The notes beneath the pieces are model-generated. The model had not been told where the DNA came from, searched no databases, and saw nothing but the letters and a program-made list of their open reading frames with translations. Positions 6,344-64,000 of a stretch of 64,000 bases of DNA are shown piece by piece. Location of the stretch: assembly GCA_905235785.1 (NCBI GenBank), contig CAJOMP010000004.1, forward strand, positions 18,761 to 82,760. The letters are read 5' to 3'. The translations under genes and the position numbers were made by a program. This DNA comes from an uncultured Clostridia bacterium (lineage in GTDB: Bacteria > Bacillota > Clostridia > Christensenellales > Borkfalkiaceae). How positions within the stretch are numbered: position 1 is the stretch's first letter; each line of letters opens with the position of its first letter.

Positions 6344-6461
6344 GTAATAACGGAAATAATGGGTAAATCCCCTTTTTTCATTTTAAAAGGAATAAAAATT
6401 TTTTAACGAGCAATACTATCGTAATCTTCCCTTGATTTTCGGAATACATAAAGGGGGAATT

Positions 6462-7232
6462 ATGGCAAATAAAGTAGTAATCTGCGGGATAAACACCGCA
6501 ACTCTTCCGAAAATCACCGAAAAACAGTCCGCGGAGATGCTCGCTAAAATAGCGGCGGGCGACAAAAAAGCGCGCGAAGATTTTATTATCGCGAATATGC
6601 GGCTGGTGCTTTCCGTGATAAAACGGTTCTGGCGAAAGAACGATTCCGACGATATGTTTCAGGCGGGCGTTACGGGACTTATTAAGGCGATAGACAATTT
6701 CGACCTGAAATTTCAGGTAAAGTTTTCCACTTACGCCGTACCGATGATAATAGGCGAAATAAAACGGTTTTTGCGCGACGGCAATTCGCTCAGGATTTCC
6801 CGTTCTATACGCGACACGGCGTACAGGATATTACAGACCCGTAGCGAAATAGAGAAAAAGGACGAAGAAGCGAGTTTAGAGCGAATCGCCGCCGAAATGC
6901 AGGTTGCTCTTTCCGAAGTGGTGTACTGTCTCGACGCTATATCGGACACGGTGTCTTTATACGACCCCGTATACAATAAAAACGGAGACGAACTTTTGCT
7001 TTTAGACCAGATAGGCGACAGTAAAAACACCGAAGAAAATTGGTCGGATAAAGTTGCCTTGGAAAGCGCGCTTAACTCGCTCGAAGTAAGGGAAAGGGAC
7101 ATCATTTATTTAAGGTATTTTGAAGGCAAAACGCAAACGGAAATATCGGAAGCGGTAGGGATTTCACAGGCGCAGGTGTCGCGCTTAGAGAAGAACGCGC
7201 TCGGCTTTATAAAAAATTCCTTAAAAGCGTAA
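6462..7232 (+). CDS. sigG: Sporulation sigma factor SigG
   Basis: N-terminus MANKVVICGINTATLP matches the SigG signature NKVEICGVDTSKLP. Also has NMRLVLSVIKRF, FSTYAVPMIIGEIKRFLRD and GISQAQVSRLEKNAL. ATG at 6462 with RBS aaaggggg is preferred over the upstream TTG at 6432. Confidence 0.92.
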   Translation: MANKVVICGINTATLPKITEKQSAEMLAKIAAGDKKAREDFIIANMRLVLSVIKRFWRKNDSDDMFQAGVTGLIKAIDNFDLKFQVKFSTYAVPMIIGEIKRFLRDGNSLRISRSIRDTAYRILQTRSEIEKKDEEASLERIAAEMQVALSEVVYCLDAISDTVSLYDPVYNKNGDELLLLDQIGDSKNTEENWSDKVALESALNSLEVRERDIIYLRYFEGKTQTEISEAVGISQAQVSRLEKNALGFIKNSLKA

Positions 7233-7354: not shown

Positions 7355-7816
7355 ATGATATTATCGTATAAAGAATTGAGAAAACGGGACGTCGTAAATA
7401 TCGCGGACGGAAGGTCGTTCGGCAAAATTACCGATTTACAATTAGACTTTCCCCGCGCCGTACTTAAAGGAATAGTGGTGTGCGATAAAAAGCGTAGCGG
7501 TTTTTTCGGGTTGTGGTGCAAAAACGAAATATTTATCGACGAAAAACACATAGTCAGAATAGGCGGCGACGTAATACTCGTAAATATCAGACACAGCGAA
7601 CCTATAACCCCGTCCGTCGTGGATATAAACGCGAAGGGCGGCGGCGCAAAGAACGGCGCGTCCTGCCCACCGCCGTGTCCGCCACCGTGTCCGCCGCCGT
7701 GTCCATCGCCATGTCCATCACCCTGCCCGCCGCCGTGTCCGCCCGAGCCGCGCGCGCAAAACGGACAAAGCGGGGATTTCGGCGAAGATTTCAGAATAGA
7801 TTTTGAAGATTATTGA
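7355..7816 (+). CDS. YlmC/YmxH-family PRC-barrel sporulation protein with a Cys/Pro-repeat C-terminal extension
   Basis: The N-terminal ~85 aa (LSYKELRKRDVVNIADGRSFGKITDLQLDF...GDVILVN) resemble YlmC/YmxH. ylmC lies near sigG in Bacillus. The tail is SCPPPCPPPCPPPCPSPCPSPCPPPCPPEP followed by an acidic end. Confidence 0.8.
   Translation: MILSYKELRKRDVVNIADGRSFGKITDLQLDFPRAVLKGIVVCDKKRSGFFGLWCKNEIFIDEKHIVRIGGDVILVNIRHSEPITPSVVDINAKGGGAKNGASCPPPCPPPCPPPCPSPCPSPCPPPCPPEPRAQNGQSGDFGEDFRIDFEDY
7664..7744 (+). repeat. In-frame 12-nt tandem repeats encoding (CPPP/CPSP)n
   Basis: tgcccaccgccg tgtccgccaccg tgtccgccgccg tgtccatcgcca tgtccatcaccc tgcccgccgccg tgtccgccc. Confidence 0.95.
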
Positions 7817-26793: not shown

Positions 26794-26800
26794 ATACGGT

Positions 26801-26895
26801 GTAGAGTAGAAAAGACGCGTTAAGTGTTGCAAAACGGGATGTTGTTTGCAAACGAAAGGCGGTAAAAGTCTGCGGTGTCTTTTCGCGTCCGCTAT
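26801..26895 (+). promoter_or_regulatory. THF (tetrahydrofolate, folT-motif) riboswitch
   Basis: GUAGAGUAG-aaaaga-CGCGUUAAGUG-uugcaaa-aCGGGAUG-uuguuugcaa-ACGAAAG...GCGGUG-ucuuuuc-GCGUCCGCUAU aligns block by block with the remembered E. siraeum THF aptamer. The stems covary: aaaaga/ucuuuu and uugcaaa/uuugcaa. Confidence 0.85.
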
Positions 26896-26978
26896 TATCA
26901 AGCGTTCGGGCGGCAAAACGCTTTTCGAAACGCAAAATTTTATCGGATCTCTCTAATAAAAAAACGGGAGATTTTTTT

Positions 26979-27722
26979 ATGTTCTGCAATCTGCTTATTA
27001 ACGCGTTCGATTTTTCGGAAATTTTCAAAACGATTCGCTCGAGATGGTATTATTACGTCGCTTTGGCGGTTTTCGTTATTTTGCTTTTTTCTTTCTTCTT
27101 TTTCAAAAAACAGCCGAGAAAAAACAATCTTACCAAAACGCAAAAGATCACATACGTCGCCGTTTTAACGGCTCTCGCCACAGTCGGCAACGTTTTCGAC
27201 ATAAAGGTCAGCGACGAATTTCAGATATCGCTCGTGGCAACGGTCGGATTTCTCGCCGGATATCTGTTAGGCGGCGGATACGGGTTTGCCGTGTGTTTTA
27301 CGGGTGATCTTATCGGCGCGATAGTAAACCCGCACGGTCCGTATAATCCTATCATAGGTATAGGAACGGGGTTTTGGGGGCTTATTCCGGGCATAGCGTT
27401 TTATTATTTCAAAGGCAACGACTACGTTAAAACGGCGATATCCTTCGCTTTGGGTTTTTTGCTCGTTTCCGCGGGCATAAACGTAGTGGGATTCTGTCTT
27501 ATGTATCCGACGTATTATACTTTCGAAATACTTTTGCCCACGCTTCCGCTTAAACTCGCCGTCGTCGCCGTGAATTGCGCGATATGTATGGCGCTCGTTT
27601 CGGTGTTGCCGCGCGTAATACAAAGCACCGCGCTGAAAAGATCGTCAAACGAAAGCGATAAAGGCGCCGAAGAAAAATCGGACGATAATAAGGCGGACGA
27701 TGCGGACGACGTCGTCGACTGA
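26979..27722 (+). CDS. folT: ECF transporter S component, folate family (FolT-like), with an extra N-terminal TM segment and an acidic tail
   Basis: Multi-TM protein with ECF-S-like helices (KITYVAVLTALATVGNV...). Located directly behind a THF riboswitch. RBS gggag. Confidence 0.7.
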   Translation: MFCNLLINAFDFSEIFKTIRSRWYYYVALAVFVILLFSFFFFKKQPRKNNLTKTQKITYVAVLTALATVGNVFDIKVSDEFQISLVATVGFLAGYLLGGGYGFAVCFTGDLIGAIVNPHGPYNPIIGIGTGFWGLIPGIAFYYFKGNDYVKTAISFALGFLLVSAGINVVGFCLMYPTYYTFEILLPTLPLKLAVVAVNCAICMALVSVLPRVIQSTALKRSSNESDKGAEEKSDDNKADDADDVVD

Positions 27723-54514: not shown

Positions 54515-55243
54515 ATGAAACAAGTCATAATGGAAACGTTAAAGACCGAAAGACTTTGCGACAGCGTTTATAAAACGGTGTTTTGCGGCGACGTTTCGGG
54601 TATAACAAACGCGGGGCAGTTCGTCAACGTAAAGATAGACGACCTGTTTTTGCGCCGCCCGATATCCGTCTGCGATTACGGCGACAATACTCTTACGCTC
54701 GTATATAAAACCGTCGGCAAAGGCACGGAAGAACTGTCGTGCGCAAAACGCGGCGATAAATTCGATATGCTTACGGGGCTCGGCAACGGCTACGACTTGT
54801 CCGCCGCGGGTGAAAAACCGCTGCTTATCGGCGGCGGGGTCGGCGTTCCGCCACTTTACTGCCTTGCGAAAAAAATGATAAAAGCGGGCAAAAAAGTTTC
54901 GGTTGCGCTCGGATTTAACCGAAAAGAAGAAGCGTTTTTCGTTCGGGAATTCGAAGATTTGAATTGTCGGGTTTTCGTCTCCACGGTAGACGGAAGTCTT
55001 GGCAAAAAAGGTCTGATAACGGACGTTTTGCCCGACGATTATTCGTACTATTACGCTTGCGGGCCTATGCCTATGCTTAAAGCGGTGTTTAACGCGGCGC
55101 GCGGCGACGGAGAGTTTTCCTTTGAAGAGCGCATGGGTTGCGGTTTCGGCGCGTGTATGGGTTGCGCCTGTAAAACGCTTTTCGGCAATAAAAGGGTGTG
55201 TAAAGAAGGTCCGGTATTTAAAAAAGGTGAAATTTTATGGTAA
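54515..55243 (+). CDS. pyrK: Dihydroorotate dehydrogenase electron-transfer subunit
   Basis: FAD/NAD-binding fold plus the 2Fe-2S motif CGFGACMGCAC...C. Confidence 0.9.
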   Translation: MKQVIMETLKTERLCDSVYKTVFCGDVSGITNAGQFVNVKIDDLFLRRPISVCDYGDNTLTLVYKTVGKGTEELSCAKRGDKFDMLTGLGNGYDLSAAGEKPLLIGGGVGVPPLYCLAKKMIKAGKKVSVALGFNRKEEAFFVREFEDLNCRVFVSTVDGSLGKKGLITDVLPDDYSYYYACGPMPMLKAVFNAARGDGEFSFEERMGCGFGACMGCACKTLFGNKRVCKEGPVFKKGEILW

Positions 55244-56151
55244 ATTTCGACACAAAAGTAGATTTATGCGGAATATCTCTCGATAATCCCGTTATCCCCG
55301 CAAGCGGAACGTTCGGCTACGGGTATGAGTTCGCCGAACTCTACGATATAAATATTCTCGGCGCGTTTTCCTGTAAGGGCACTACGCTTTCGGAACGGTT
55401 CGGCAACCCCACTCCGCGCATTGCCGAGTGCGCCGCGGGCATGCTTAACTCCGTGGGCTTGCAAAATCCCGGAGTAAAAAAGGTAGTGGCGGAAGAACTG
55501 CCGCGCCTTAAAAAGGTATACGGGAAAAAAATAATGGCAAACGTCAGCGGCTTTTCCGCGGAAGAATACGTCGAAGTAAGCCGCATTTTAGATAAAGAAG
55601 ACGTAGTCGGATGGTTGGAAATTAACGTTTCCTGTCCGAACGTGCACGGCGGCGGGCTTTCTTTCGGCACCGATCCGAAAACGGCGGCGCAAATTACCGC
55701 AATGGTCAAAAAAGCGACCGTTAAACCCGTTATAGTAAAACTTTCGCCGAACGTTACCGATATCGCGGCAATGGCGAAAGCGGTCGAAGACGCGGGGGCG
55801 GACGGCGTTTCGCTCATAAACACGCTCGTCGGTATGCGTATAGATTTGAAAACAAAAAAACCTATTTTGAGTAACGTAACGGGCGGACTGTCGGGACCTG
55901 CGATTTTTCCCGTTGCGCTCGGTATGGTGTATAAGGTCTGTAAAGCGGTGAAAATTCCCGTGGTCGGTATGGGCGGTATCAAAAGCGCGGAAGACGTTTT
56001 GGAAATGATGCTTGCGGGCGCTACGGCGGTAGAAGTCGGCGCGGCTAATCTCGTCGACCCGTACGCGTGCAAAAAAATAATAGAAGATTTACCGAAGACA
56101 ATGGAAAAATACGGCGTAAAATCGCTTAAAGAAATAAGGGGGTCTGTATAA
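55237..56151 (+). CDS. pyrD: Dihydroorotate dehydrogenase (class 1B) catalytic subunit
   Basis: NPVIPASGTFGYG, GLQNPG, EINVSCPN, GGLSGPAI, GMGGI. Confidence 0.95.
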   Translation: MVNFDTKVDLCGISLDNPVIPASGTFGYGYEFAELYDINILGAFSCKGTTLSERFGNPTPRIAECAAGMLNSVGLQNPGVKKVVAEELPRLKKVYGKKIMANVSGFSAEEYVEVSRILDKEDVVGWLEINVSCPNVHGGGLSFGTDPKTAAQITAMVKKATVKPVIVKLSPNVTDIAAMAKAVEDAGADGVSLINTLVGMRIDLKTKKPILSNVTGGLSGPAIFPVALGMVYKVCKAVKIPVVGMGGIKSAEDVLEMMLAGATAVEVGAANLVDPYACKKIIEDLPKTMEKYGVKSLKEIRGSV

Positions 56152-56852
56152 TGGCGAAAGACGTAATAATAGCGTGCGATTTTGACGGCGCGGAAAAAAC
56201 GCTCGCTTTTCTGGACTTATTTAATGACAGAAAACCGTTCGTAAAAATAGGCATGGAACTTTTTTATTCCGCGGGACCCGATATCGTGCGCAAAGTAAAA
56301 GAAAGGGGACACAAAGTTTTTCTGGATCTTAAACTGCACGATATCCCGAATACGGTGAGAAAGAGTATGGCTGTTTTAACAAATCTCGGCGCGGATATAT
56401 TAGACCTTCACGCGGGCGGAACGATCAGTATGATGAAAGCGGGGCTCGAAGGCGTTTGCCAAAGAGTCGGCGCCAGACCGCTTTTGATTGCAATAACGCA
56501 ATTGACTTCAACCGACGAAGAAAGTATGCAACGCGACTTGCTTATCGAACGCCCTATTGCGGACGTCGTTTCGCACTATGCGTTAAACGCAAAAATCGCG
56601 GGGCTTGACGGTATAGTGTGTTCGCCGCTCGAAGCGGACAAGGTGCATAAAACTTGCGGCAAAGATTTTCTTACTATCACTCCCGGCATACGTTTTGAAG
56701 ACGGGGAAAAGGGCGACCAAAAAAGAGTTATGACCCCGACCGCCGCAAGACAAGCGGGTTCAGACTATATCGTTGTGGGACGCCCCATAACCGCGGCGGA
56801 AGATCCTGTCGCGGCATACCTTAGATGCGTAAAAGAATTTTTGGGAGAATAA
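56151..56852 (+). CDS. pyrF: Orotidine 5'-phosphate decarboxylase
   Basis: VKIGMELF, FLDLKLHDIPNT, IVVGRPIT. Confidence 0.95.
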   Translation: MAKDVIIACDFDGAEKTLAFLDLFNDRKPFVKIGMELFYSAGPDIVRKVKERGHKVFLDLKLHDIPNTVRKSMAVLTNLGADILDLHAGGTISMMKAGLEGVCQRVGARPLLIAITQLTSTDEESMQRDLLIERPIADVVSHYALNAKIAGLDGIVCSPLEADKVHKTCGKDFLTITPGIRFEDGEKGDQKRVMTPTAARQAGSDYIVVGRPITAAEDPVAAYLRCVKEFLGE

Positions 56853-56853
56853 T

Positions 56854-57501
56854 ATGGAAATTAACGAAAAAGTAGCGAAGGCTTTGCTTTCCGAACGGGC
56901 GGTGTTTTTCCGCCCCGAAGAGCCTTTTATCTGGGCGAGCGGCATAAAAAGTCCCGTGTATTGCGATAACCGCTTAACGCTTACCGCGCCGAAAGTAAGA
57001 CTTATAATCGAAAACGGGCTTGCAACGATAGTAAAAACGGAATATCCCGATGCGGAAGTCTTAATGGGAACTTCTACCGCGGGGATAGCGCACGCGGCTA
57101 TAACCGCGCATATTCTGGGGCTTCCCATGGGTTACGTCCGTTCGGGCGCGAAAGACCACGGCAGACAGAACAGAATAGAAGGCAAACTCGAAAAAGGACA
57201 AAAAGTCGTCGTGATAGAAGACCTTATTTCGACGGGCGGCAGCGTAATAGACACGGTAGACGCGTTGCGGCAGGCGGGCGCGGAAGTTTTGGGAGTTGCG
57301 AGCATTTTCACTTACGGTATGAAAAAAGGCATAGAGAAACTCGCCGCGGCGAACGTTAAAAACGTGTCGCTGACAAACTTCGACGCGGTAGCTAAGGTCG
57401 CCGCGAAAGAAGGATATATAGCGGGAAGCGACGTTAAAAGACTGTTAGAGTTCAGGGATAATCCGTCGGACGAAAGTTGGATAAAGGAGAAAAATTTATG
57501 A
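56854..57501 (+). CDS. pyrE: Orotate phosphoribosyltransferase
   Basis: PRPP-binding motif VVVIEDLISTGGS. Confidence 0.93.
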   Translation: MEINEKVAKALLSERAVFFRPEEPFIWASGIKSPVYCDNRLTLTAPKVRLIIENGLATIVKTEYPDAEVLMGTSTAGIAHAAITAHILGLPMGYVRSGAKDHGRQNRIEGKLEKGQKVVVIEDLISTGGSVIDTVDALRQAGAEVLGVASIFTYGMKKGIEKLAAANVKNVSLTNFDAVAKVAAKEGYIAGSDVKRLLEFRDNPSDESWIKEKNL

Positions 57502-58589
57502 AAAGCGTAATAGACATTTCCGACCTTACCCGCATAGAGATTGACGAAATGATAATGACGGCGACGGACATAATAAACCGTCCCGAAAAATATTCGGATA
57601 AGTGCAAGGGTAAAAAGATAGCCACGCTGTTTTTCGAGCCGTCCACCCGCACAAGGCTTTCATTTGAAGCGGCAATGTACGATCTCGGCGGCAACGTTTT
57701 GTCCGTGCCGGGCGAAGCGCTTTCTTCCGCGGCGAAAGGCGAAAGCGTTGCGGATACGGTAAAAGTGGTTTCGTCGTACGTCGATATAATAGCGATGCGC
57801 TCGCCAAAAGAAGGCGCGGCGTTCGTTGCGGCAAACAACGCGACCGTGCCCGTGATAAATGCGGGCGACGGGGGGCATTGCCACCCCACGCAGACTCTTG
57901 CCGACCTTCTTACGATTTACCGCGAAAAGGGCACGTTCGACAACTTGACCGTCGGATTTTGCGGCGACCTTAAATACGGCAGAACGGTGCACTCTCTGAT
58001 AACCGCGCTTTCGAGATATAAAAACGTTAAAATCGCGCTTATTTCGCCCGACGAGTTGAAGTTGCCGAATTATATGAAAACAGGCGTTATCGAAAAATCG
58101 GGTATGGAATATAAGGAAACGGACAATCTCGAAAGCGTTCTTCCCGAACTCGATATTCTCTATATGACGAGAATTCAGCAGGAGCGGTTCGATGACAAAG
58201 CCGAATACGAAAGGCTTAAAGACGCGTACGTTTTAACGGCGGAAAAAATGCGGGCGGCAAAAAAAGACGCTTGCGTTATGCACCCCTTGCCGCGCGTGAA
58301 CGAAATCAGCGTGAAAGTGGACAAAGACCCCCGCGCCTGTTATTTTAAGCAAGTGGAAAACGGCAAGTTTATGCGTATGGCGCTTATATTAAAACTGTTG
58401 AAAGAGGCGGAAAATCCCGTAAAAGAAGACCTTTTGAAAAACACCGAAACGTTCGCCTTAACATCGGGTTGCGAAAATCCGCGCTGTATTTCGCAAACCG
58501 AACAGGAACTTGAAAAACTGTTTAAAATCGTGGATAAAAAAGCGGGAGTGTGCCGCTGTGTGTATTGCGAAAAGAGCAAAAAAGTTTAA
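57498..58589 (+). CDS. pyrB: Aspartate carbamoyltransferase catalytic chain fused to a PyrI-type zinc domain
   Basis: FEPSTRTRLSFE, HPTQ and HPLPR form the catalytic core (about 305 aa). The C-terminal ~55 aa, CENPRCIS...CRCVYCEK, match the PyrI zinc domain (CPNxNCIS...CxYCE). ATGA overlap with pyrE. Confidence 0.88.
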   Translation: MKSVIDISDLTRIEIDEMIMTATDIINRPEKYSDKCKGKKIATLFFEPSTRTRLSFEAAMYDLGGNVLSVPGEALSSAAKGESVADTVKVVSSYVDIIAMRSPKEGAAFVAANNATVPVINAGDGGHCHPTQTLADLLTIYREKGTFDNLTVGFCGDLKYGRTVHSLITALSRYKNVKIALISPDELKLPNYMKTGVIEKSGMEYKETDNLESVLPELDILYMTRIQQERFDDKAEYERLKDAYVLTAEKMRAAKKDACVMHPLPRVNEISVKVDKDPRACYFKQVENGKFMRMALILKLLKEAENPVKEDLLKNTETFALTSGCENPRCISQTEQELEKLFKIVDKKAGVCRCVYCEKSKKV

Positions 58590-58592
58590 TTA

Positions 58593-58634
58593 CCGTCCGC
58601 TTGCCGACGTTTAAGCGTAACGGATAGTTTTTTT
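58593..58634 (+). terminator. Terminator after the pyr operon
   Basis: ccgtccgctt / aagcgtaacgg imperfect stem followed by T-run 58628-58634. Confidence 0.6.
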
Positions 58635-58645
58635 CGCTCAACGGA

Positions 58646-58674
58646 TTGACAATCTACGTATAATTTATTATAAT
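58646..58674 (+). promoter_or_regulatory. Sigma-A type promoter of the partner-switching operon
   Basis: TTGACA-17 nt-TATAAT. The ATG at 58683 is 8 nt after the -10 with no SD, suggesting a leaderless mRNA. Confidence 0.55.
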
Positions 58675-58682
58675 TACAAACG

Positions 58683-60750
58683 ATGGAAAAATCAAAATCC
58701 TTTATTCACAGTTTGACTTTCAACATTATAGCGGCGACCGCGGTGTTGCTGCTGATTTTTTGCGTGGTCGTAAGTACGATAGGATATCTTAAATTTACGG
58801 ATTCCTTAACTAGCGAATATACGGACTCCGCTATCCGCACGGCGGACACGGCGGCAACGCTCGTCAAAGCGGATAATATAGGGGAATATCTGCTAAATGC
58901 GCAGAGCATTAAAAATAACGAAAACACGGCGATAGTCCAAGAATACCGCCAGAGTTTAGATTATCTTAATACCCTTTGCGACAAGCAAAACGTTACCGTG
59001 ATTTACGTAATTGCCGTCGATACGACCGACTACAAGCATTTTACTTCCGTTTTCAACTGTCCGAATAAAACCAGCCCTTATTCGCCGTGGATTATCGGCG
59101 ACGTAAAGTATACGACGGCGACTTCAAATGACGAGTATGAGAACATTTATAAAGATATTTACGAAAACGGTAGAAAAAGCGCGACCATAATGAGAACAAC
59201 GAATTTAAACGGCGCGCCGCCGCACGTAACTTCGCTCGTTCCGCTTTGCAATACTGACGGCGCGGTTACGGGGATAATGTGCGTTCAGCGCCCTATGGCG
59301 GAACTTGACGCAGGGCGCAGAAGTTATATTATACTCGTTGCCTGTTTTACGCTTGGGCTTGCGGCGCTTTGCATAGCGTCTTCCGCGCTGTATATGAAAA
59401 AACAGTTCGTTAACCCGATTAAAAAGATAAATAACGAAGCGGCGCGATTTGCAAGGGAAAACAGCGCGCCCGAAAAGCCGCTGACAGGCAAATTGAGCAG
59501 AGTAAACGAGATATCTTCTCTCGCCGCGGCGGTTTCCGAAATGGAAGAAGACACTCTTAAATATATCGAAAACCTTTCGGCGGCTATTTCCGAAAAACAA
59601 CGTATGGGTACGGAACTGCATATAGCAAGCCTTATACAGGAAGGTTCTCTTCCTTCGGTTTTTCCCGCCTTTCCTGACCGCTCGGAATTCGACCTTTTCG
59701 CGTCTATGGACCCCGCGAAAGAAGTGGGCGGCGATTTTTACGACTTTTTCCTTATCGACGACGAACATTTGGCGCTCGTTATGGCGGACGTGTCGGGTAA
59801 AGAAAGGCGTTCCCGCCGCTCTGTTTATGATGGTAATGAAAATACTCATCAGCGACCGCGCGCTTATGGGCGGTACTCCCGCGGAAATTCTCGGCTTTGT
59901 CAACGATAGGATTTGCGAACACAACAAGGCGGAAATGTTCGTTACAGTCTGGCTCGGTATTCTCGAAATTTCGACGGGTAAACTGACTTTTGCCAACGCC
60001 GGACACGACGATCCCGCTTTTGCGACGGGGGGCGGCGATTTCGATATAATAAAGACAAAACACGGGCTTGCCGTCGGCGCTATGAGCGGCGTTACTTATA
60101 AAGACCACGAAACGGTTTTAAATAAAGGGGACAAAGTTTTCCTTTATACCGACGGCGTGCCCGAAGCGACCGACAAAGACAATCATTTATTCACGACGCA
60201 AAAAATGCTGGACGCGTTAAACGAGTGTACTGCGAGCGCGCCCGAAACGGTAATAAAGACCGTACGGAAAAGGGTAGACGAATTCGTGGGCGACGCGCCG
60301 CAGTTCGACGACGTTACTATGCTGTGCCTTGAATACAAGGGTAAAAACGGTAAAAGCGTAAAACTTAAAGCCGAGAACGAAAATCTCGGCAAGGCGATAG
60401 ATTTTGTAAGAGATTGCATTAAAGACAGCGGCTGTTCTGAAAAATTTATGCGGCAGACCGAACTGTTCGTCGAAGAGATTTTTGTCAACGTAGCGCATTA
60501 CGCTTACACGCCGGATACGGGCGACGTTGAAATTTCCGTCGAAGTTTTTGCGGACAAAATAACGGTTACGTTTACCGACGAAGGTAAAAAGTATAACCCG
60601 TTGGAAAAACCCGATCCGGACCTTACCGTTCCCGCGGATAAGCGCGAAATAGGCGGGCTCGGTATATATATGACTAAAAAACTTTCGGACGAAATGGAAT
60701 ACGACTACAAGGACGGCAAAAACGTTCTTACCGTGGAGAAGAGATTTTGA
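58683..60750 (+). pseudogene. Membrane sensor (Cache-like)-HAMP-PP2C(SpoIIE/RsbU-type) phosphatase-RsbW-like HATPase fusion, interrupted by a +4 frameshift
   Basis: ORF 58683-59909 ends its homology at ...LALVMADVSGK. ORF 59827-60750, extended upstream in frame, reads KGVPAALFMMVMK... Removing one aaag copy (59799-59806) restores the canonical DVSGKGVPAALFM. The C-terminus has QFDDVTML and then an anti-sigma-kinase-like domain (EIGGLGIYMTKKL). Confidence 0.8.
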
Positions 60751-61313
60751 GTAAATTAGACGAAGCGATAAAATTTGCGGTCGACGCGCATTGCGGGCAA
60801 AAGCGTAAACTTTCCGACGCGCCCTATATTCTGCATCCGCTGGAATCTGCGGCAATCGTTTCTACGCTTACGGGCGAAGAAGACGTACTTTGCGCAACGG
60901 TTTTGCACGACGTAGTCGAAGATACGGGACACGGACTTTTCGAGATCGAAGAAAAGTTCGGCAAAAGGGTGGCGGAACTCGTCGGCGCGGAAACGGAGAA
61001 CAAGCGTTCTAACTTGCCGCCGGAAAGTACGTGGCAGATAAGAAAGGAAGAAACGCTTGCGCATTTACGGCAAACAACGGACAGAGCGGTAAAAATTATG
61101 TGGCTCGCCGATAAACTTTCAAATATGCGCGCTATTTATAACGCTTATTCGGAGTGCGGCGATAGCATTTGGCAAGCCTTTCACGAAACCGATAAGAACA
61201 AGCAGAAATGGTACTATCAAAGCATTGCCGACGCGCTTAAAAACGACTTTAAGGACTCGGCGGCTTATAAAGAATACGAAAAACTTATTACTTTGGTTTT
61301 CGGTAAAAATTAA
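60747..61313 (+). CDS. Small HD-domain hydrolase of the RelA/SpoT (Mesh1/SAH-like) type
   Basis: 188 aa. AIKFAVDAHCGQKRK...PYILHPLESAAIV...VLHDVVEDT...ETEN matches the SpoT-type HD signature. TTG start overlaps the upstream stop (TTGA). Confidence 0.7.
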   Translation: MSKLDEAIKFAVDAHCGQKRKLSDAPYILHPLESAAIVSTLTGEEDVLCATVLHDVVEDTGHGLFEIEEKFGKRVAELVGAETENKRSNLPPESTWQIRKEETLAHLRQTTDRAVKIMWLADKLSNMRAIYNAYSECGDSIWQAFHETDKNKQKWYYQSIADALKNDFKDSAAYKEYEKLITLVFGKN

Positions 61314-61328
61314 CAGGGGTGAATAAAA

Positions 61329-62501
61329 ATGAATTTCAAAAACGAAAACGGAACTTTAACCGTATTTTTAAGCGGCAGAATAGACTCTTCTAACGCCGAC
61401 GCGACGGAAAAGGAAATAGCGGCAATAAGAGAGAGTAACTCTTACGATAACCTGATATTAGACGCCGACTGTTTAGAGTACATATCTTCGGCGGGACTTC
61501 GGGTTGTTTTAAGGCTGAAAAAAGCGGAATCGTCTTTCAGCGTCATAAACGCGAACTCGGACGTGTATGAAATTTTCGACATGACGGGCTTTACCGAAAT
61601 GATAGATATTAAAAAGGCGTACCGCCGCATATCGGTTGAAGGCGCGGAAGTTATAGGTCAGGGCGCGAACGGCAAAGTTTACAGGATAAACGCGGACACC
61701 ATCGTCAAAGTATACTTAAATCCCGACAGTTTAAATGATATACAGCGGGAACGCGACCTTGCCAAAAAAGCGTTCGTGCTCGGTATACCGACGGCGATTT
61801 CTTACGATATAGCAAGGGTCGGGAACGGATACGGTACGGTGTTTGAACTGCTTAACGCAAAATCTTTCGCTAAACTTATAGCGGAAGAACCCGAAAAACT
61901 CGATTATTACGTGGGGCTTTACGTGGATTTGTTAAATAAAATCCATTCTACCGAAGTTAAAGCGGGAGATATGCCCGATATGAAGGAAATTGCGGTCGGT
62001 TGGGCGGAATTCGACAGAGAGTATCTGCCTGAAAAAATCGGCGAAAAACTCGTAAATCTTGTAAAAGCAGTACCGCAGGATAATCATATGTTGCACGGCG
62101 ACTATCACATCAAAAACGTTATGATGCAAGACGGCGAAGTTTTGCTTATCGATATGGATACGCTGTGCGTAGGTAATCCCGTGTTTGAACTCGGCTCAAT
62201 GTTTAACGCTTACGAAGGTTTTTCTTCGCTTGAACCCGGCATATCGCTTGCGTTTTTAGGCGTACCGCACGAGACGGCGGTGGCAATTTGGGAAAAATCG
62301 CTCGCAAAGTATTTGGGAACTTCAGATGCGGCAAAAATAGCCTACGTGGAAAACAAAGCGAAGATCGTCGGGTTTATGAGACTTTTGCGCAGGGATATCC
62401 GCCGCGGCGGTTTGCAAGATGAAAAAATGAAAAAAGAAATAGACTTTTATACCGAACAACTTATTTCTCTCGTAGAAAAAGTCGATACGCTTACTATTTG
62501 A
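61329..62501 (+). CDS. STAS (anti-sigma antagonist-like) domain fused to an APH/choline-kinase-fold phosphotransferase
   Basis: The N-terminal ~95 aa carry the SpoIIAA-like phospho-Ser motif LEYISSAGLRVVL. The C-terminal part has GQGANGKVY...IVKVY, HGDYHIKNVMM and LIDMDT (APH/Brenner motifs). Confidence 0.75.
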   Translation: MNFKNENGTLTVFLSGRIDSSNADATEKEIAAIRESNSYDNLILDADCLEYISSAGLRVVLRLKKAESSFSVINANSDVYEIFDMTGFTEMIDIKKAYRRISVEGAEVIGQGANGKVYRINADTIVKVYLNPDSLNDIQRERDLAKKAFVLGIPTAISYDIARVGNGYGTVFELLNAKSFAKLIAEEPEKLDYYVGLYVDLLNKIHSTEVKAGDMPDMKEIAVGWAEFDREYLPEKIGEKLVNLVKAVPQDNHMLHGDYHIKNVMMQDGEVLLIDMDTLCVGNPVFELGSMFNAYEGFSSLEPGISLAFLGVPHETAVAIWEKSLAKYLGTSDAAKIAYVENKAKIVGFMRLLRRDIRRGGLQDEKMKKEIDFYTEQLISLVEKVDTLTI

Positions 62502-62611
62502 TTTGATGAATTAATAAGTCAAAAAAAATAAAAAACGATATAACTTTTACGTTGAATTACGGGCAAGCGGTATTTATTTATTGCAAAATGATTTGATGTT
62601 TGGTGAGCATT

Positions 62612-64000
62612 ATGAACAGATTTATTGATTACGAGCCCATACCTTTTTATTTTTTAAATGACGATTTAAATCGGGAAGAACTCGTTTTGCAATTGGATTT
62701 TATGAAAGCGAACGGGATTGCCGCGTTCTTTTTGCACGTGCGCGACGGCGTTGAAACGAAACCGTGGGGTACCGAACGGTTTTTCGACGATGTGCGATTT
62801 ATCGTTGAAAAGGCGGTCGAGCGCGGTATCAAGGTCTGGCTTTACGACGAAGATTCTTATCCCAGCGGGCAAGGCGGCGGGAAAATAGTTATAGACCGTC
62901 CGGAACTTGCCGCGAGATCTTTGAGAATAAAAAAACTTGCAAACGTCGATAAAGGTTTCGTAAGAGAAAATCTTGGCAGCGTACAGGGCTTATGCGGGTA
63001 CGTCGTAAGAAAGAGAGCGGGAAAGGAAACCGTTATCAAGGTGGAAAACTGTTTCGGTCCCGTTCGTGCGCGTTGGTATCGTTCCGCGTGGGAGTCTTCC
63101 TATTTTTACGATATGAAGCCTGCGTTTCCTTTTAAACACGTTCGGGCGTTGACGACGGACGTGGATATCGTTTTCGAGACGGAAGCGGAGCAGGGCGACG
63201 ACGTATTTATCGTATATTTAATGCCCGTGGAGAACAGTAAATACGGATACGCTGCCGATTGTTTGAATATTGAAACGACGAAAGAATATATCGCTCGCGT
63301 GCACGAAAAGTATAAGGCTTGCGTGGGGGAATATTTCGGAAAGGATATTCCCGGCATATTTTTAGACGAGCCGTCGGCAGGGGGAATATTGCCTTATACG
63401 CCTTCTCTCGCGGCTGATTTTTATGAAAAATACGGTTATTCCATAGAAGATAATTATTATCGTTTATCCGACGAATACGTCGGCGGCGAAAAAGTACGTC
63501 GCGATTATTTTGAATGCGCGGCGGAAACGTTCAGAAAAAATTTCATACAGCCGATCGCGGATTGGTGTTCTGCAAACGGGCTTTTAAGCACCGGTCATTT
63601 TGCCGGTGAAGATAACCCGATAGGTATGTCGCGATGCGCGCAGAATATTTATCGTCAATCCGCTTGTTTGGATATTCCGGGATTTGACATCATAGGACCT
63701 AATCTCGGTAGCAGAGAATATCCGGCTCTGTTGTTCGGAGCGGCTCTCGCGGTATCGCAGGCGGCTCAACAAGGTAAAACGCGTGTGCTTGCGGAATGCT
63801 TCGCGCTGTTGCCGTTTAATGCGCGGTATCACGATTTGAAAAGAATAGGCGATTGGCTATACGTACTCGGAATCAATTTTTTAGTGCCGCATGCGTTTCA
63901 TTATGCGTATTGCGCCTATCATCGGGCAGACGCGGGGAAATCTTTTTTCTTTCAGGATCCGTATTTTGAAGAATACAAAAAGTTCGCGGCGTATGCGGGC
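62612..64000 (+). CDS. Putative glycoside-hydrolase-like protein, 5' part (runs off the window; not in the ORF track)
   Basis: An open frame of 463 codons from ATG 62612 to the window end with no stop. MNRFIDYEPIPFYFLND...FFLHVRDG...VWLYDEDSYPSGQGGG...IFLDEPS resembles uncharacterised TIM-barrel-type GH-like proteins. The family assignment is tentative. Confidence 0.5.
   Translation, partial: MNRFIDYEPIPFYFLNDDLNREELVLQLDFMKANGIAAFFLHVRDGVETKPWGTERFFDDVRFIVEKAVERGIKVWLYDEDSYPSGQGGGKIVIDRPELAARSLRIKKLANVDKGFVRENLGSVQGLCGYVVRKRAGKETVIKVENCFGPVRARWYRSAWESSYFYDMKPAFPFKHVRALTTDVDIVFETEAEQGDDVFIVYLMPVENSKYGYAADCLNIETTKEYIARVHEKYKACVGEYFGKDIPGIFLDEPSAGGILPYTPSLAADFYEKYGYSIEDNYYRLSDEYVGGEKVRRDYFECAAETFRKNFIQPIADWCSANGLLSTGHFAGEDNPIGMSRCAQNIYRQSACLDIPGFDIIGPNLGSREYPALLFGAALAVSQAAQQGKTRVLAECFALLPFNARYHDLKRIGDWLYVLGINFLVPHAFHYAYCAYHRADAGKSFFFQDPYFEEYKKFAAYAG

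Follow-up and report, generated by a model that had tools for sequence, protein, structure and literature searches.

The stretch of DNA analysed here, referred to below as the window, comprises 64,000 nucleotides of contig CAJOMP010000004.1 from an uncultured Clostridia bacterium. Near its 3' end lies a cluster of three genes. Gene 1 encodes a membrane sensor that joins a PP2C phosphatase to an RsbW-like kinase, gene 2 an HD hydrolase, and gene 3 a STAS domain fused to an enzyme of the APH kinase fold. The reading favoured here, with a probability of roughly 55%, is that these genes form a sigma-independent phosphorylation module of the partner-switching type, which gates the APH-fold kinase and has a small alarmone hydrolase (SAH) as its partner. 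Direct support comes from the domains themselves, from intact catalytic and phospho-acceptor residues, from the co-location of the genes, from natural fusions between their products and from the lack of a sigma gene. The cluster is a real and widespread module of hundreds of gut and rumen Clostridia. In this window, the module is either mis-assembled or inactivated.

In the proposed mechanism, an intact gene 1, as found in orthologues, would yield a membrane protein in which an extracytoplasmic Cache-like domain and a HAMP-like linker govern a PP2C phosphatase and an RsbW-like serine kinase, cytoplasmic activities that oppose each other within the same polypeptide. The common substrate of both would be Ser54 in the N-terminal STAS domain of gene 3, and the signal-controlled balance between kinase and phosphatase would set the state of this residue. 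The phosphorylation state of the STAS domain would then gate the fused APH-fold kinase, either in cis or by docking of the unphosphorylated STAS domain onto the HATPase domain. The SAH would be a working partner of the STAS-APH enzyme: it may act on the product of the kinase, or else clear (p)ppGpp or (p)ppApp as part of one and the same response. Which protein phosphorylates which is inferred, as are the sense of the regulation and what the APH domain and the hydrolase act on.

The presumed output of the module is gene 3. A first-pass annotation of the window had described it as a STAS domain with a phosphorylatable serine, fused to an aminoglycoside/choline-kinase-fold phosphotransferase, and this description holds. 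Pfam finds STAS at residues 4-96 (1e-10) and APH at residues 107-295 (2.3e-15), the latter (PF01636) with 57.5 bits against a cut-off of 23.2. A profile alignment places Ser54 on the phosphorylated Ser58 of SpoIIAA. The APH part has its Gly-rich loop, catalytic lysine, HGDxHxxN motif and DxD motif all present, and the residues S54, K127, H256, D258, N263, D275 and D277 are invariant in 73/73 species loci. The AlphaFold2 (AF2) model of the protein has a mean predicted local distance difference test (pLDDT) value of 88. Foldseek matches it to APH(3'), APH(2''), APH(4), methylthioribose (MTR) kinase and choline kinase, with E values from 6e-10 to 7e-8 and template modelling (TM) scores of about 0.5-0.6. 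Against the NCBI model TIGR02172 it scores 112.3 bits where the cut-off is 228.2, and is thus related to that family without being a member by the NCBI threshold. NCBIfam as a whole gives only sub-threshold matches for the three proteins, to SiaA, RsbW, SpoIIAB, RelA/SpoT, SpoIIAA and TIGR02172. All of the domain families that the first-pass annotation had named for profile searching (SpoIIE, HATPase_c_2, HD_4, STAS and APH) were matched in Pfam.

The kinase and phosphatase that would act on this serine are encoded by gene 1. Its Pfam matches come only from a repaired protein, in which 4 nt were deleted at the frameshift described below. In this protein, SpoIIE covers residues 359-550 (1e-46) and HATPase_c_2 residues 561-684 (2e-23). 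The metal-binding aspartates of the PP2C domain (D351, D369, D489, D541 and D542) are kept in 39/39 orthologues. Likewise, the N box and G boxes of the HATPase domain (N601, D631, G633, and G656, G657 and G659 of the GGxG motif) are kept in 30/30. Hydrophobic segments at residues 6-40 and 213-238 are separated by about 175 residues.

These 175 residues had been called a Cache domain, followed by a HAMP-like linker. The two transmembrane segments, the phosphatase and the kinase of that description stand; the sensor domains do so in part, since the Cache domain lacks a Pfam match and the HAMP match is below threshold. No Pfam family matches residues 1-216 even at E<=10, and no precomputed domain match was found for this region among 120 homologues. 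The HAMP profile (PF00672) reaches 13.7 bits (E 0.079, cut-off 25) over residues 240-287, at the expected place after the second transmembrane helix. A sequence-based assignment of either domain thus failed. An AF2 model of the sensor built with 20 homologues has pLDDT values above 90 for residues 40-130 and of at least 87 for most later blocks, with drops to about 70 at residues 141-150 and 171-180. It consists of a long N-terminal helix followed by a PAS-like alpha/beta unit, held between two transmembrane helices. The best Foldseek matches are the sensor domains of WalK, KinD, Tlp3 and DctB and the formate-binding domain of an Oscillibacter chemoreceptor, with modest TM scores of 0.4-0.6 on the target. 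The model therefore supports a Cache-like extracytoplasmic domain at the level of the fold only. The HAMP-like region is modelled as a helix-loop-helix, and a relative, L091, carries a weak HAMP match on record.

Gene 2 had been described as a stand-alone hydrolase of the RelA/SpoT type, and this too is borne out. The protein has 188 residues and a single HD_4 domain (residues 7-137, 2.7e-23), with no synthetase, TGS or ACT domain, and it aligns only to the N-terminal hydrolase part of RelA/SpoT models. Its best matches in the PDB are the single-domain HD proteins 7qoe, 4yf1 (Lmo0812) and 7qoc; Mesh1 is also matched. The residues H54, D55, E58, D59, D122 and N126 are kept in 40/40 homologues and H30 in 39/40, the exception being a gap. 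These residues are equivalent to the hydrolase residues of Rel (RelSeq). By domain content and residues, gene 2 is a predicted SAH. The link from the module to alarmone hydrolysis that had been suggested draws on gene neighbourhood and one fusion, and would on these grounds be overstated.

Evidence that the three genes belong together is provided by their distribution. The STAS-APH protein has at least 8000 relatives in the databases, and both domains are present in almost all of the 120 that were listed. At 50% identity and E<=1e-30, these relatives form 685 clusters. The gene is found in at least 553 species-representative genomes, mostly of Clostridia. The carriers include Oscillospiraceae, Acutalibacteraceae, Christensenella and Lachnospiraceae, among the last the cultured Coprococcus catus. 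Further carriers are Mogibacterium, Erysipelotrichaceae and one metagenome-assembled genome of the Spirochaetia.

To describe the neighbourhoods, 81 non-redundant STAS-APH loci were searched with the domains of the window, 51 of them having full flanks. Within 4 kb, a HATPase_c_2 domain is found in 42/51 fully flanked loci, an HD hydrolase in 31/51 and a PP2C domain in 27/51, so the three genes do occur together in other genomes. All three partners are present in 21/51 and at least one in 45/51, always on the same strand. The hydrolase is especially close: of the 55 loci with a hydrolase gene, 47 have it no more than 200 nt upstream of STAS-APH. When the search is started from the hydrolase instead, 3/3 sampled homologues (55-58% identity) have a STAS-APH gene 5-11 nt downstream, and at one of these three loci the sensor is 5TMR-LYT with HAMP and not Cache-like. 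Clustering of the open reading frames (ORFs) in the 81 loci gives only four recurrent families, namely STAS-APH, PP2C/HATPase, HD and a STAS protein of about 99 residues. The order of genes varies. Eight loci have that of the window (PP2C-HATPase, HD, STAS-APH), and a further 7 have it with a STAS gene added.

Some of these arrangements differ in the number of parts. In a Mogibacterium/Anaerovoracaceae group of loci (L031, L036, L037, L043, L045, L049, L050, L052 and L071), STAS is followed by STAS-APH and then by a stand-alone HATPase, while PP2C and HD genes are missing from the vicinity. This order appears to be a minimal version that has only the kinase. A variant operon at L091 (1129-6744) encodes a 945-residue 5TMR-LYT-HAMP-SpoIIE-HATPase_c_2 protein, followed by STAS, an unknown protein of 155 residues, HD_4 and STAS-APH, and so keeps the core while its membrane input domain is another one. 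The input modules are thus interchangeable: Cache-like in the window, 5TMR-LYT with HAMP in L091, and none where the HATPase stands alone.

In several relatives, proteins that are separate in the window are joined into one chain. At 90% clustering, a STAS-APH-HATPase_c_2 fusion comprises 20 members, drawn from several assemblies, and the reverse order, HATPase_c_2-STAS-APH, also occurs among the longer relatives. An HD_4-STAS-APH fusion, a singleton at 90% clustering, is encoded by a single ORF of 605 residues (L097 4001-5818). STAS-APH is also fused to a poly(A)-polymerase head, which is a nucleotidyltransferase head domain (a 90% cluster with three members), and to HD-CE, PHP and YezG-like domains (single examples at 90% clustering). 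The rare fusions are found at L097 4001-5818 and L098 652-2490 and in the proteins P0251, P0343 and P0267. The HATPase fusion is solid evidence of a functional link. The others are hints only, and hint at a nucleotide or phosphoester as substrate.

Several observations weigh against the favoured reading. The module is predicted from sequences and models, and whatever goes beyond domain content, residue conservation and genomic linkage is inferred. The APH domain is 12-16% identical to solved APH and choline kinase (ChoK) enzymes and has no close characterised relative, and because of this low identity no substrate can be derived for it. The 4-kb flanks are devoid of a HATPase in nine of the 51 fully flanked loci. 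In Coprococcus catus VPI-C6-61 (L027 6283-8591), HD_4, STAS-APH and a small STAS gene are consecutive, and neither a HATPase nor a PP2C lies within 7 kb. Thus, genes for the kinase and phosphatase may lie elsewhere, or the two may be dispensable. Many loci carry the extra small STAS protein, which suggests a competition more complex than a simple switch in cis. The HD_4-STAS-APH fusion is found on one contig only. Finally, gene 1 of the window itself is frameshifted.

The most conventional rival is a classical partner switch whose sigma factor is encoded elsewhere, with the HATPase as anti-sigma factor, STAS-APH as its antagonist and the APH and HD domains as passengers. Databases do label the homologues "anti-sigma factor antagonist", and the best NCBIfam matches, weak as they are, lead to RsbW and SpoIIAB for the HATPase and to anti-sigma antagonists for the STAS domain; however, these scores lie far under the family cut-offs (36 versus 145 bits). 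The claim that the operon has no sigma factor agrees with the neighbourhoods, since there is none in the cluster and none recurs in the 81 loci when all ORFs are clustered. The window does contain a sigma-70-family gene with regions 2, 3 and 4 (6432-7232), its only one, but this lies 52 kb from the operon. It is followed by a PRC-barrel gene (7355-7816), a layout typical of sporulation sigma loci, and neither has a STAS or HATPase gene near it. In the window as a whole, no other STAS, HATPase_c_2, PP2C or HD_4 domain was found that could act as paralogue or partner. Moreover, the HATPase is tethered to a membrane phosphatase, or even fused to STAS-APH, which also speaks against an anti-sigma role. 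On these grounds, a distant sigma target is improbable.

A different rival takes the hydrolase as the regulated output. Here, STAS-APH or the HATPase domain would bind and control the SAH, coupling an extracellular signal to the clearance of (p)ppGpp or (p)ppApp, and APH would be a nucleotide-binding or regulatory module instead of an effector. HD and STAS-APH are the tightest gene pair, whether counted from STAS-APH or from the hydrolase; the pair persists in Coprococcus catus without a nearby kinase or phosphatase, and once the two are a single ORF. The hydrolase also retains every catalytic residue checked. Yet the HD gene is absent from 20/51 fully flanked loci, including the group with the order STAS, STAS-APH, HATPase, and the invariance of the APH catalytic residues argues for a working kinase and not a binding module. 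This reading is therefore rather unlikely. A bolder possibility, and a long shot, is that the APH kinase and the HD_4 hydrolase make and degrade a new phosphorylated messenger of nucleotide type, its production being turned on or off by an extracellular signal by way of the Cache-PP2C/kinase sensor acting on the STAS domain. The messenger could be, for example, a nucleotide phosphorylated at the ribose 2'- or 3'-position. Hints in this direction are the tight pairing of HD and STAS-APH in both directions and the fusions, most of them singletons, to HD_4, HD-CE and PHP phosphoesterases and to the nucleotidyltransferase head. The SAH relative Mesh1 is able to remove the ribose 2'-phosphate from NADPH. 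If such a messenger existed, it would belong to a second-messenger pathway assembled from partner-switching parts.

Two other roles considered for the cluster, as a defence system or as a toxin-antitoxin system, have no support: none of the three proteins matches any PADLOC family, and the cluster is without an alarmone synthetase.

The cluster as sequenced does not encode gene 1 as one protein. On the + strand, 3' of the pyr gene block, there are four ORFs and not three: 58683-59909 (408 residues), 59827-60750 (307 residues), 60747-61313 (188 residues, TTG start) and 61329-62501 (390 residues). The first two are the halves of gene 1, so the single fusion protein of the first-pass annotation is here divided into two ORFs. 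The cause is a tandem duplication of four nucleotides (AAAG|AAAG) in a metal-binding motif of the PP2C domain. At this site the sequence reads GTG TCG GGT AAA G-AAAG-GC GTT CCC, and the frame is lost directly after DVSGK. The motif that had been quoted for the phosphatase, DVSGKGVPAALF, is therefore not contiguous in the coding sequence. The frame-1 ORF continues out of frame past the duplication to 59909, and the PP2C domain is divided. Removing 4 nt restores a gene 1 protein of 687 residues. The consensus of 20 homologues at this place is MADVSGKGxPAALFMM, with no duplication, and K373 and G374 are invariant in 39/39 species loci.

On balance, the duplication is somewhat more likely to be an assembly artefact made at a contig join than a real lesion. 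Five independent same-species contigs obtained from other samples (L088, L090, L001, L002 and L087) all have the motif intact and the duplication absent, and all of them begin at window positions 59718-59803, an 85-nt stretch beside the duplication. An end-to-end join with a 4-nt overlap (..GGTAAAG + AAAGGCG..) yields exactly the sequence found. Downstream of the site, three of the five contigs are 99.9-100% identical to the window, and genes 2 and 3, themselves intact, recur in other samples at 100% identity. All of this tells against the alternative, held at somewhat below even odds, that the duplication is real and the locus a decaying pseudogene in this genome, with the sensor-phosphatase lost and at most an untethered kinase fragment remaining as product. 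In favour of a pseudogene, the frameshift is present in the deposited contig and the broken 408-residue ORF is on record (P0154). That protein is the only one in the databases identical to the N-terminal half, and its sole carrier is the 88,277-nt source contig. The join is also collinear: L088 aligns across the site, with about 94% identity on either side, and the order pyrF-pyrE-pyrB-to-gene 1 recurs in L007 and L009. For the same two reasons, a gross chimera at the site is excluded.

A programmed frameshift was likewise rejected. The +1 slip that it needs would put a glutamate into the invariant DxSGKG motif, and the insertion is absent from the five same-species contigs and from 39 aligned species loci. 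Searching gene 1 against the window by BLAST gave nothing above 30 nt that could indicate a repeat or mobile element at the site. In its first 9 nt, L001 shows synonymous differences from the window, which suggests that divergent alleles of the sensor half may co-exist. The stretch 59718-59803 may mark the transition from divergent sensor alleles to a downstream segment that is shared.

The coordinates of the cluster and its parts are collected in Table 1. The spacing of the genes is as first annotated, with an overlap of 4 nt between the end of gene 1 and gene 2 and a gap of 15 nt between genes 2 and 3.

Table 1. Positions of the genes, domains and signals of the cluster in the window
Feature	Position	Strand	Basis
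Terminator-like hairpin with U7 tail, 3' of pyrB	58588..58636	+	RNA fold, dG -12 kcal/mol, z -1.74
Sigma-70-type promoter, TTGACA-17-TATAAT	58646..58674	+	12/12 match
Gene 1, N-terminal part (frame 1)	58683..59805	+	ORF calls, domain coordinates
Transmembrane segment 1	58719-58790	+	Hydrophobic segment
Extracytoplasmic Cache-like domain	58791-59318	+	Fold-level match
Transmembrane segment 2	59319-59393	+	Hydrophobic segment
HAMP-like linker	59400-59543	+	Sub-threshold HAMP match
Start of PP2C domain	from 59757	+	Pfam SpoIIE on repaired protein
Tandem 4-nt duplication AAAG|AAAG inside DVSGK|GVP metal-binding motif	59799..59806	+	Breaks gene 1 frame
Gene 1, C-terminal part (frame 2)	59806..60750	+	Remainder of PP2C (to 60336), RsbW-like HATPase_c_2 (60367-60738)
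Gene 2, stand-alone RelA/SpoT-type HD hydrolase (SAH)	60747..61313	+	HD_4 2.7e-23
Gene 3, STAS and APH/ChoK-fold kinase	61329..62501	+	Pfam STAS, APH
STAS domain; Ser54 codon; APH domain	61338-61616; 61488-61490; from 61647	+	Within gene 3

A promoter preceded by a terminator of the pyr genes had been proposed at the start of the cluster, and the promoter and a terminator-like hairpin are seen. The promoter is the sole 12/12 match within 57-64 kb. The total of promoter-like sites in the region is not above chance (11, against a shuffled expectation of 8.8 ± 3.8). The call is supported by orthologous loci: in L004, L008 and L009 the hexamers and the 17-nt spacer are identical, the ATG follows at 8-9 nt, and a Shine-Dalgarno sequence is missing. 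In the window, the end of the -10 box lies 8 nt from the ATG of gene 1 and a Shine-Dalgarno sequence is absent, which implies a leaderless mRNA. This layout, kept in four related loci, suggests that the mRNA of the sensor gene may be leaderless. The more distant orthologues L013 and L018 have a normal GGAGG-type ribosome-binding site before gene 1 instead. The hairpin 3' of pyrB is of modest strength by RNA fold; in the orthologues L004 and L009, the same position holds clearer GC-rich hairpins with a T run. No convincing terminator was found 3' of gene 3, and no Rfam match near the operon pointed to a riboswitch or other leader control.

Upstream of the cluster, the pyr block consists of four ORFs (54515-57501) followed by pyrB (57477-58589). 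The pyrB ORF has a Cys-rich C-terminal tail of about 60 residues (C..C...CxC..C), which could be a fused PyrI-like zinc domain, and its annotated start overlaps pyrE by 25 nt. Downstream, a gene for an alpha-L-rhamnosidase of glycoside hydrolase family GH106 (62600-64000, +) runs past the edge of the window. Orthologous loci have differing flanks, such as Flg_new proteins, a fucosidase or rpiB, and the three genes therefore move as a unit. Elsewhere in the window, a tetrahydrofolate (THF) riboswitch (26800-26896, +; 78.6 bits against a gathering score of 36) lies directly upstream of a gene for the S component of an energy-coupling factor (ECF) transporter (26979-27722), which is probably a folate transporter.

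Partner-switching modules are textbook regulators of sigma factors, and few cases are known with other targets. In the literature searched, no paper was found that deals with TIGR02172, with a STAS domain fused to APH, or with a partner-switching cluster that contains an alarmone hydrolase. The statement that this is not a described system thus holds for the architecture, but not for the principle of a fused enzyme switched through a STAS domain, for which All4160, discussed below, is a precedent. Direct control of a fused enzyme by partner switching was first shown in 2026, in cyanobacteria. If the sigma-independent gating proposed here is correct, the STAS-APH family would extend this logic to a kinase-fold enzyme and to alarmone metabolism. 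It would offer a possible and directly testable way in which an extracellular signal could act on (p)ppGpp/(p)ppApp turnover or lead to a new phosphorylated metabolite. The module has a defined phospho-site, three purifiable enzymes and natural fusions, and Coprococcus catus, as a cultured carrier, could serve as an experimental model.

Compared with the RsbU/RsbV/RsbW and SpoIIE/SpoIIAA/SpoIIAB systems of Bacillus, the module has in common a PP2C phosphatase, a STAS domain with a phospho-serine of the DSSG type and a HATPase_c_2 kinase, and the phosphorylation chemistry is probably shared. It differs in that no sigma gene is found in the operon or recurs in the 81 neighbourhoods, that the kinase is fused to the phosphatase, and that the STAS domain is fused to an enzyme. 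The components outside the switch can be compared in the same way. Like Mesh1, RelH of C. glutamicum and Lmo0812 (7qoe, 7qoc, 4yf1 and 5vxa), gene 2 has a single HD_4 domain in about 190 residues, an HDxxED motif and intact catalytic residues. In contrast to these SAHs, it belongs to a STAS/PP2C/HATPase operon and at times occurs as a fusion with STAS-APH. Gene 3 shares the APH fold and catalytic motifs with TIGR02172 and the APH family (PF01636), and is set apart from them by its N-terminal STAS domain.

Switching without a sigma factor had been put forward as a feature of this operon. The operon is indeed sigma-less, but dual regulators of STAS proteins with outputs other than sigma are already known. 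Pseudomonas HsbR/HsbA, Streptomyces OsaC and M. tuberculosis Rv1364c are dual kinase/phosphatase regulators of STAS proteins. A further one is SypE of Vibrio fischeri, which acts on the STAS protein SypA and has a non-sigma output (PMC8256260). Like SypE, HsbR, OsaC and Rv1364c, gene 1 joins an RsbW-like kinase and a PP2C phosphatase in one polypeptide, with an output that is not, or not only, a sigma factor. The input of SypE and HsbR is a receiver domain, whereas here it is an extracytoplasmic Cache-like domain between two transmembrane helices, with a HAMP-like linker. The STAS partners of the SypE/HsbR type are single-domain proteins, whereas here the STAS domain is the N-terminal part of a kinase-fold enzyme, which has an alarmone hydrolase as its partner.

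Genetic and in vitro work on the glycosyltransferase All4160 of Anabaena sp. PCC 7120 (PMC13555669) provides an example for the control of a fused enzyme: a SpoIIE phosphatase and an RsbW-type kinase switch the STAS domain of this protein. This type of fusion is largely confined to cyanobacteria (PMC13555669). Together, HenR/Alr3423/All4160 and SypE/SypA are experimental precedents and thereby support the logic of the gating mechanism proposed for the Clostridia. Like HenR/Alr3423/All4160, the present module combines a fusion of an enzyme to an N-terminal STAS domain with a phosphatase of the SpoIIE type and a kinase of the RsbW type, which act on the STAS serine in Anabaena and are predicted to do so here; the output of All4160 is an enzyme activity and not a sigma factor. 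The fused enzyme of Anabaena is a sugar transferase, whereas the one described here has the APH/ChoK kinase fold. In Anabaena, a receiver domain is part of the phosphatase and the kinase is a protein of its own, whereas here phosphatase and kinase reside in one membrane sensor. The Anabaena module is without an HD hydrolase, which in the present cluster is part of the operon. Finally, fusions of the All4160 type are mainly cyanobacterial, whereas the STAS-APH family belongs mainly to the Clostridia.

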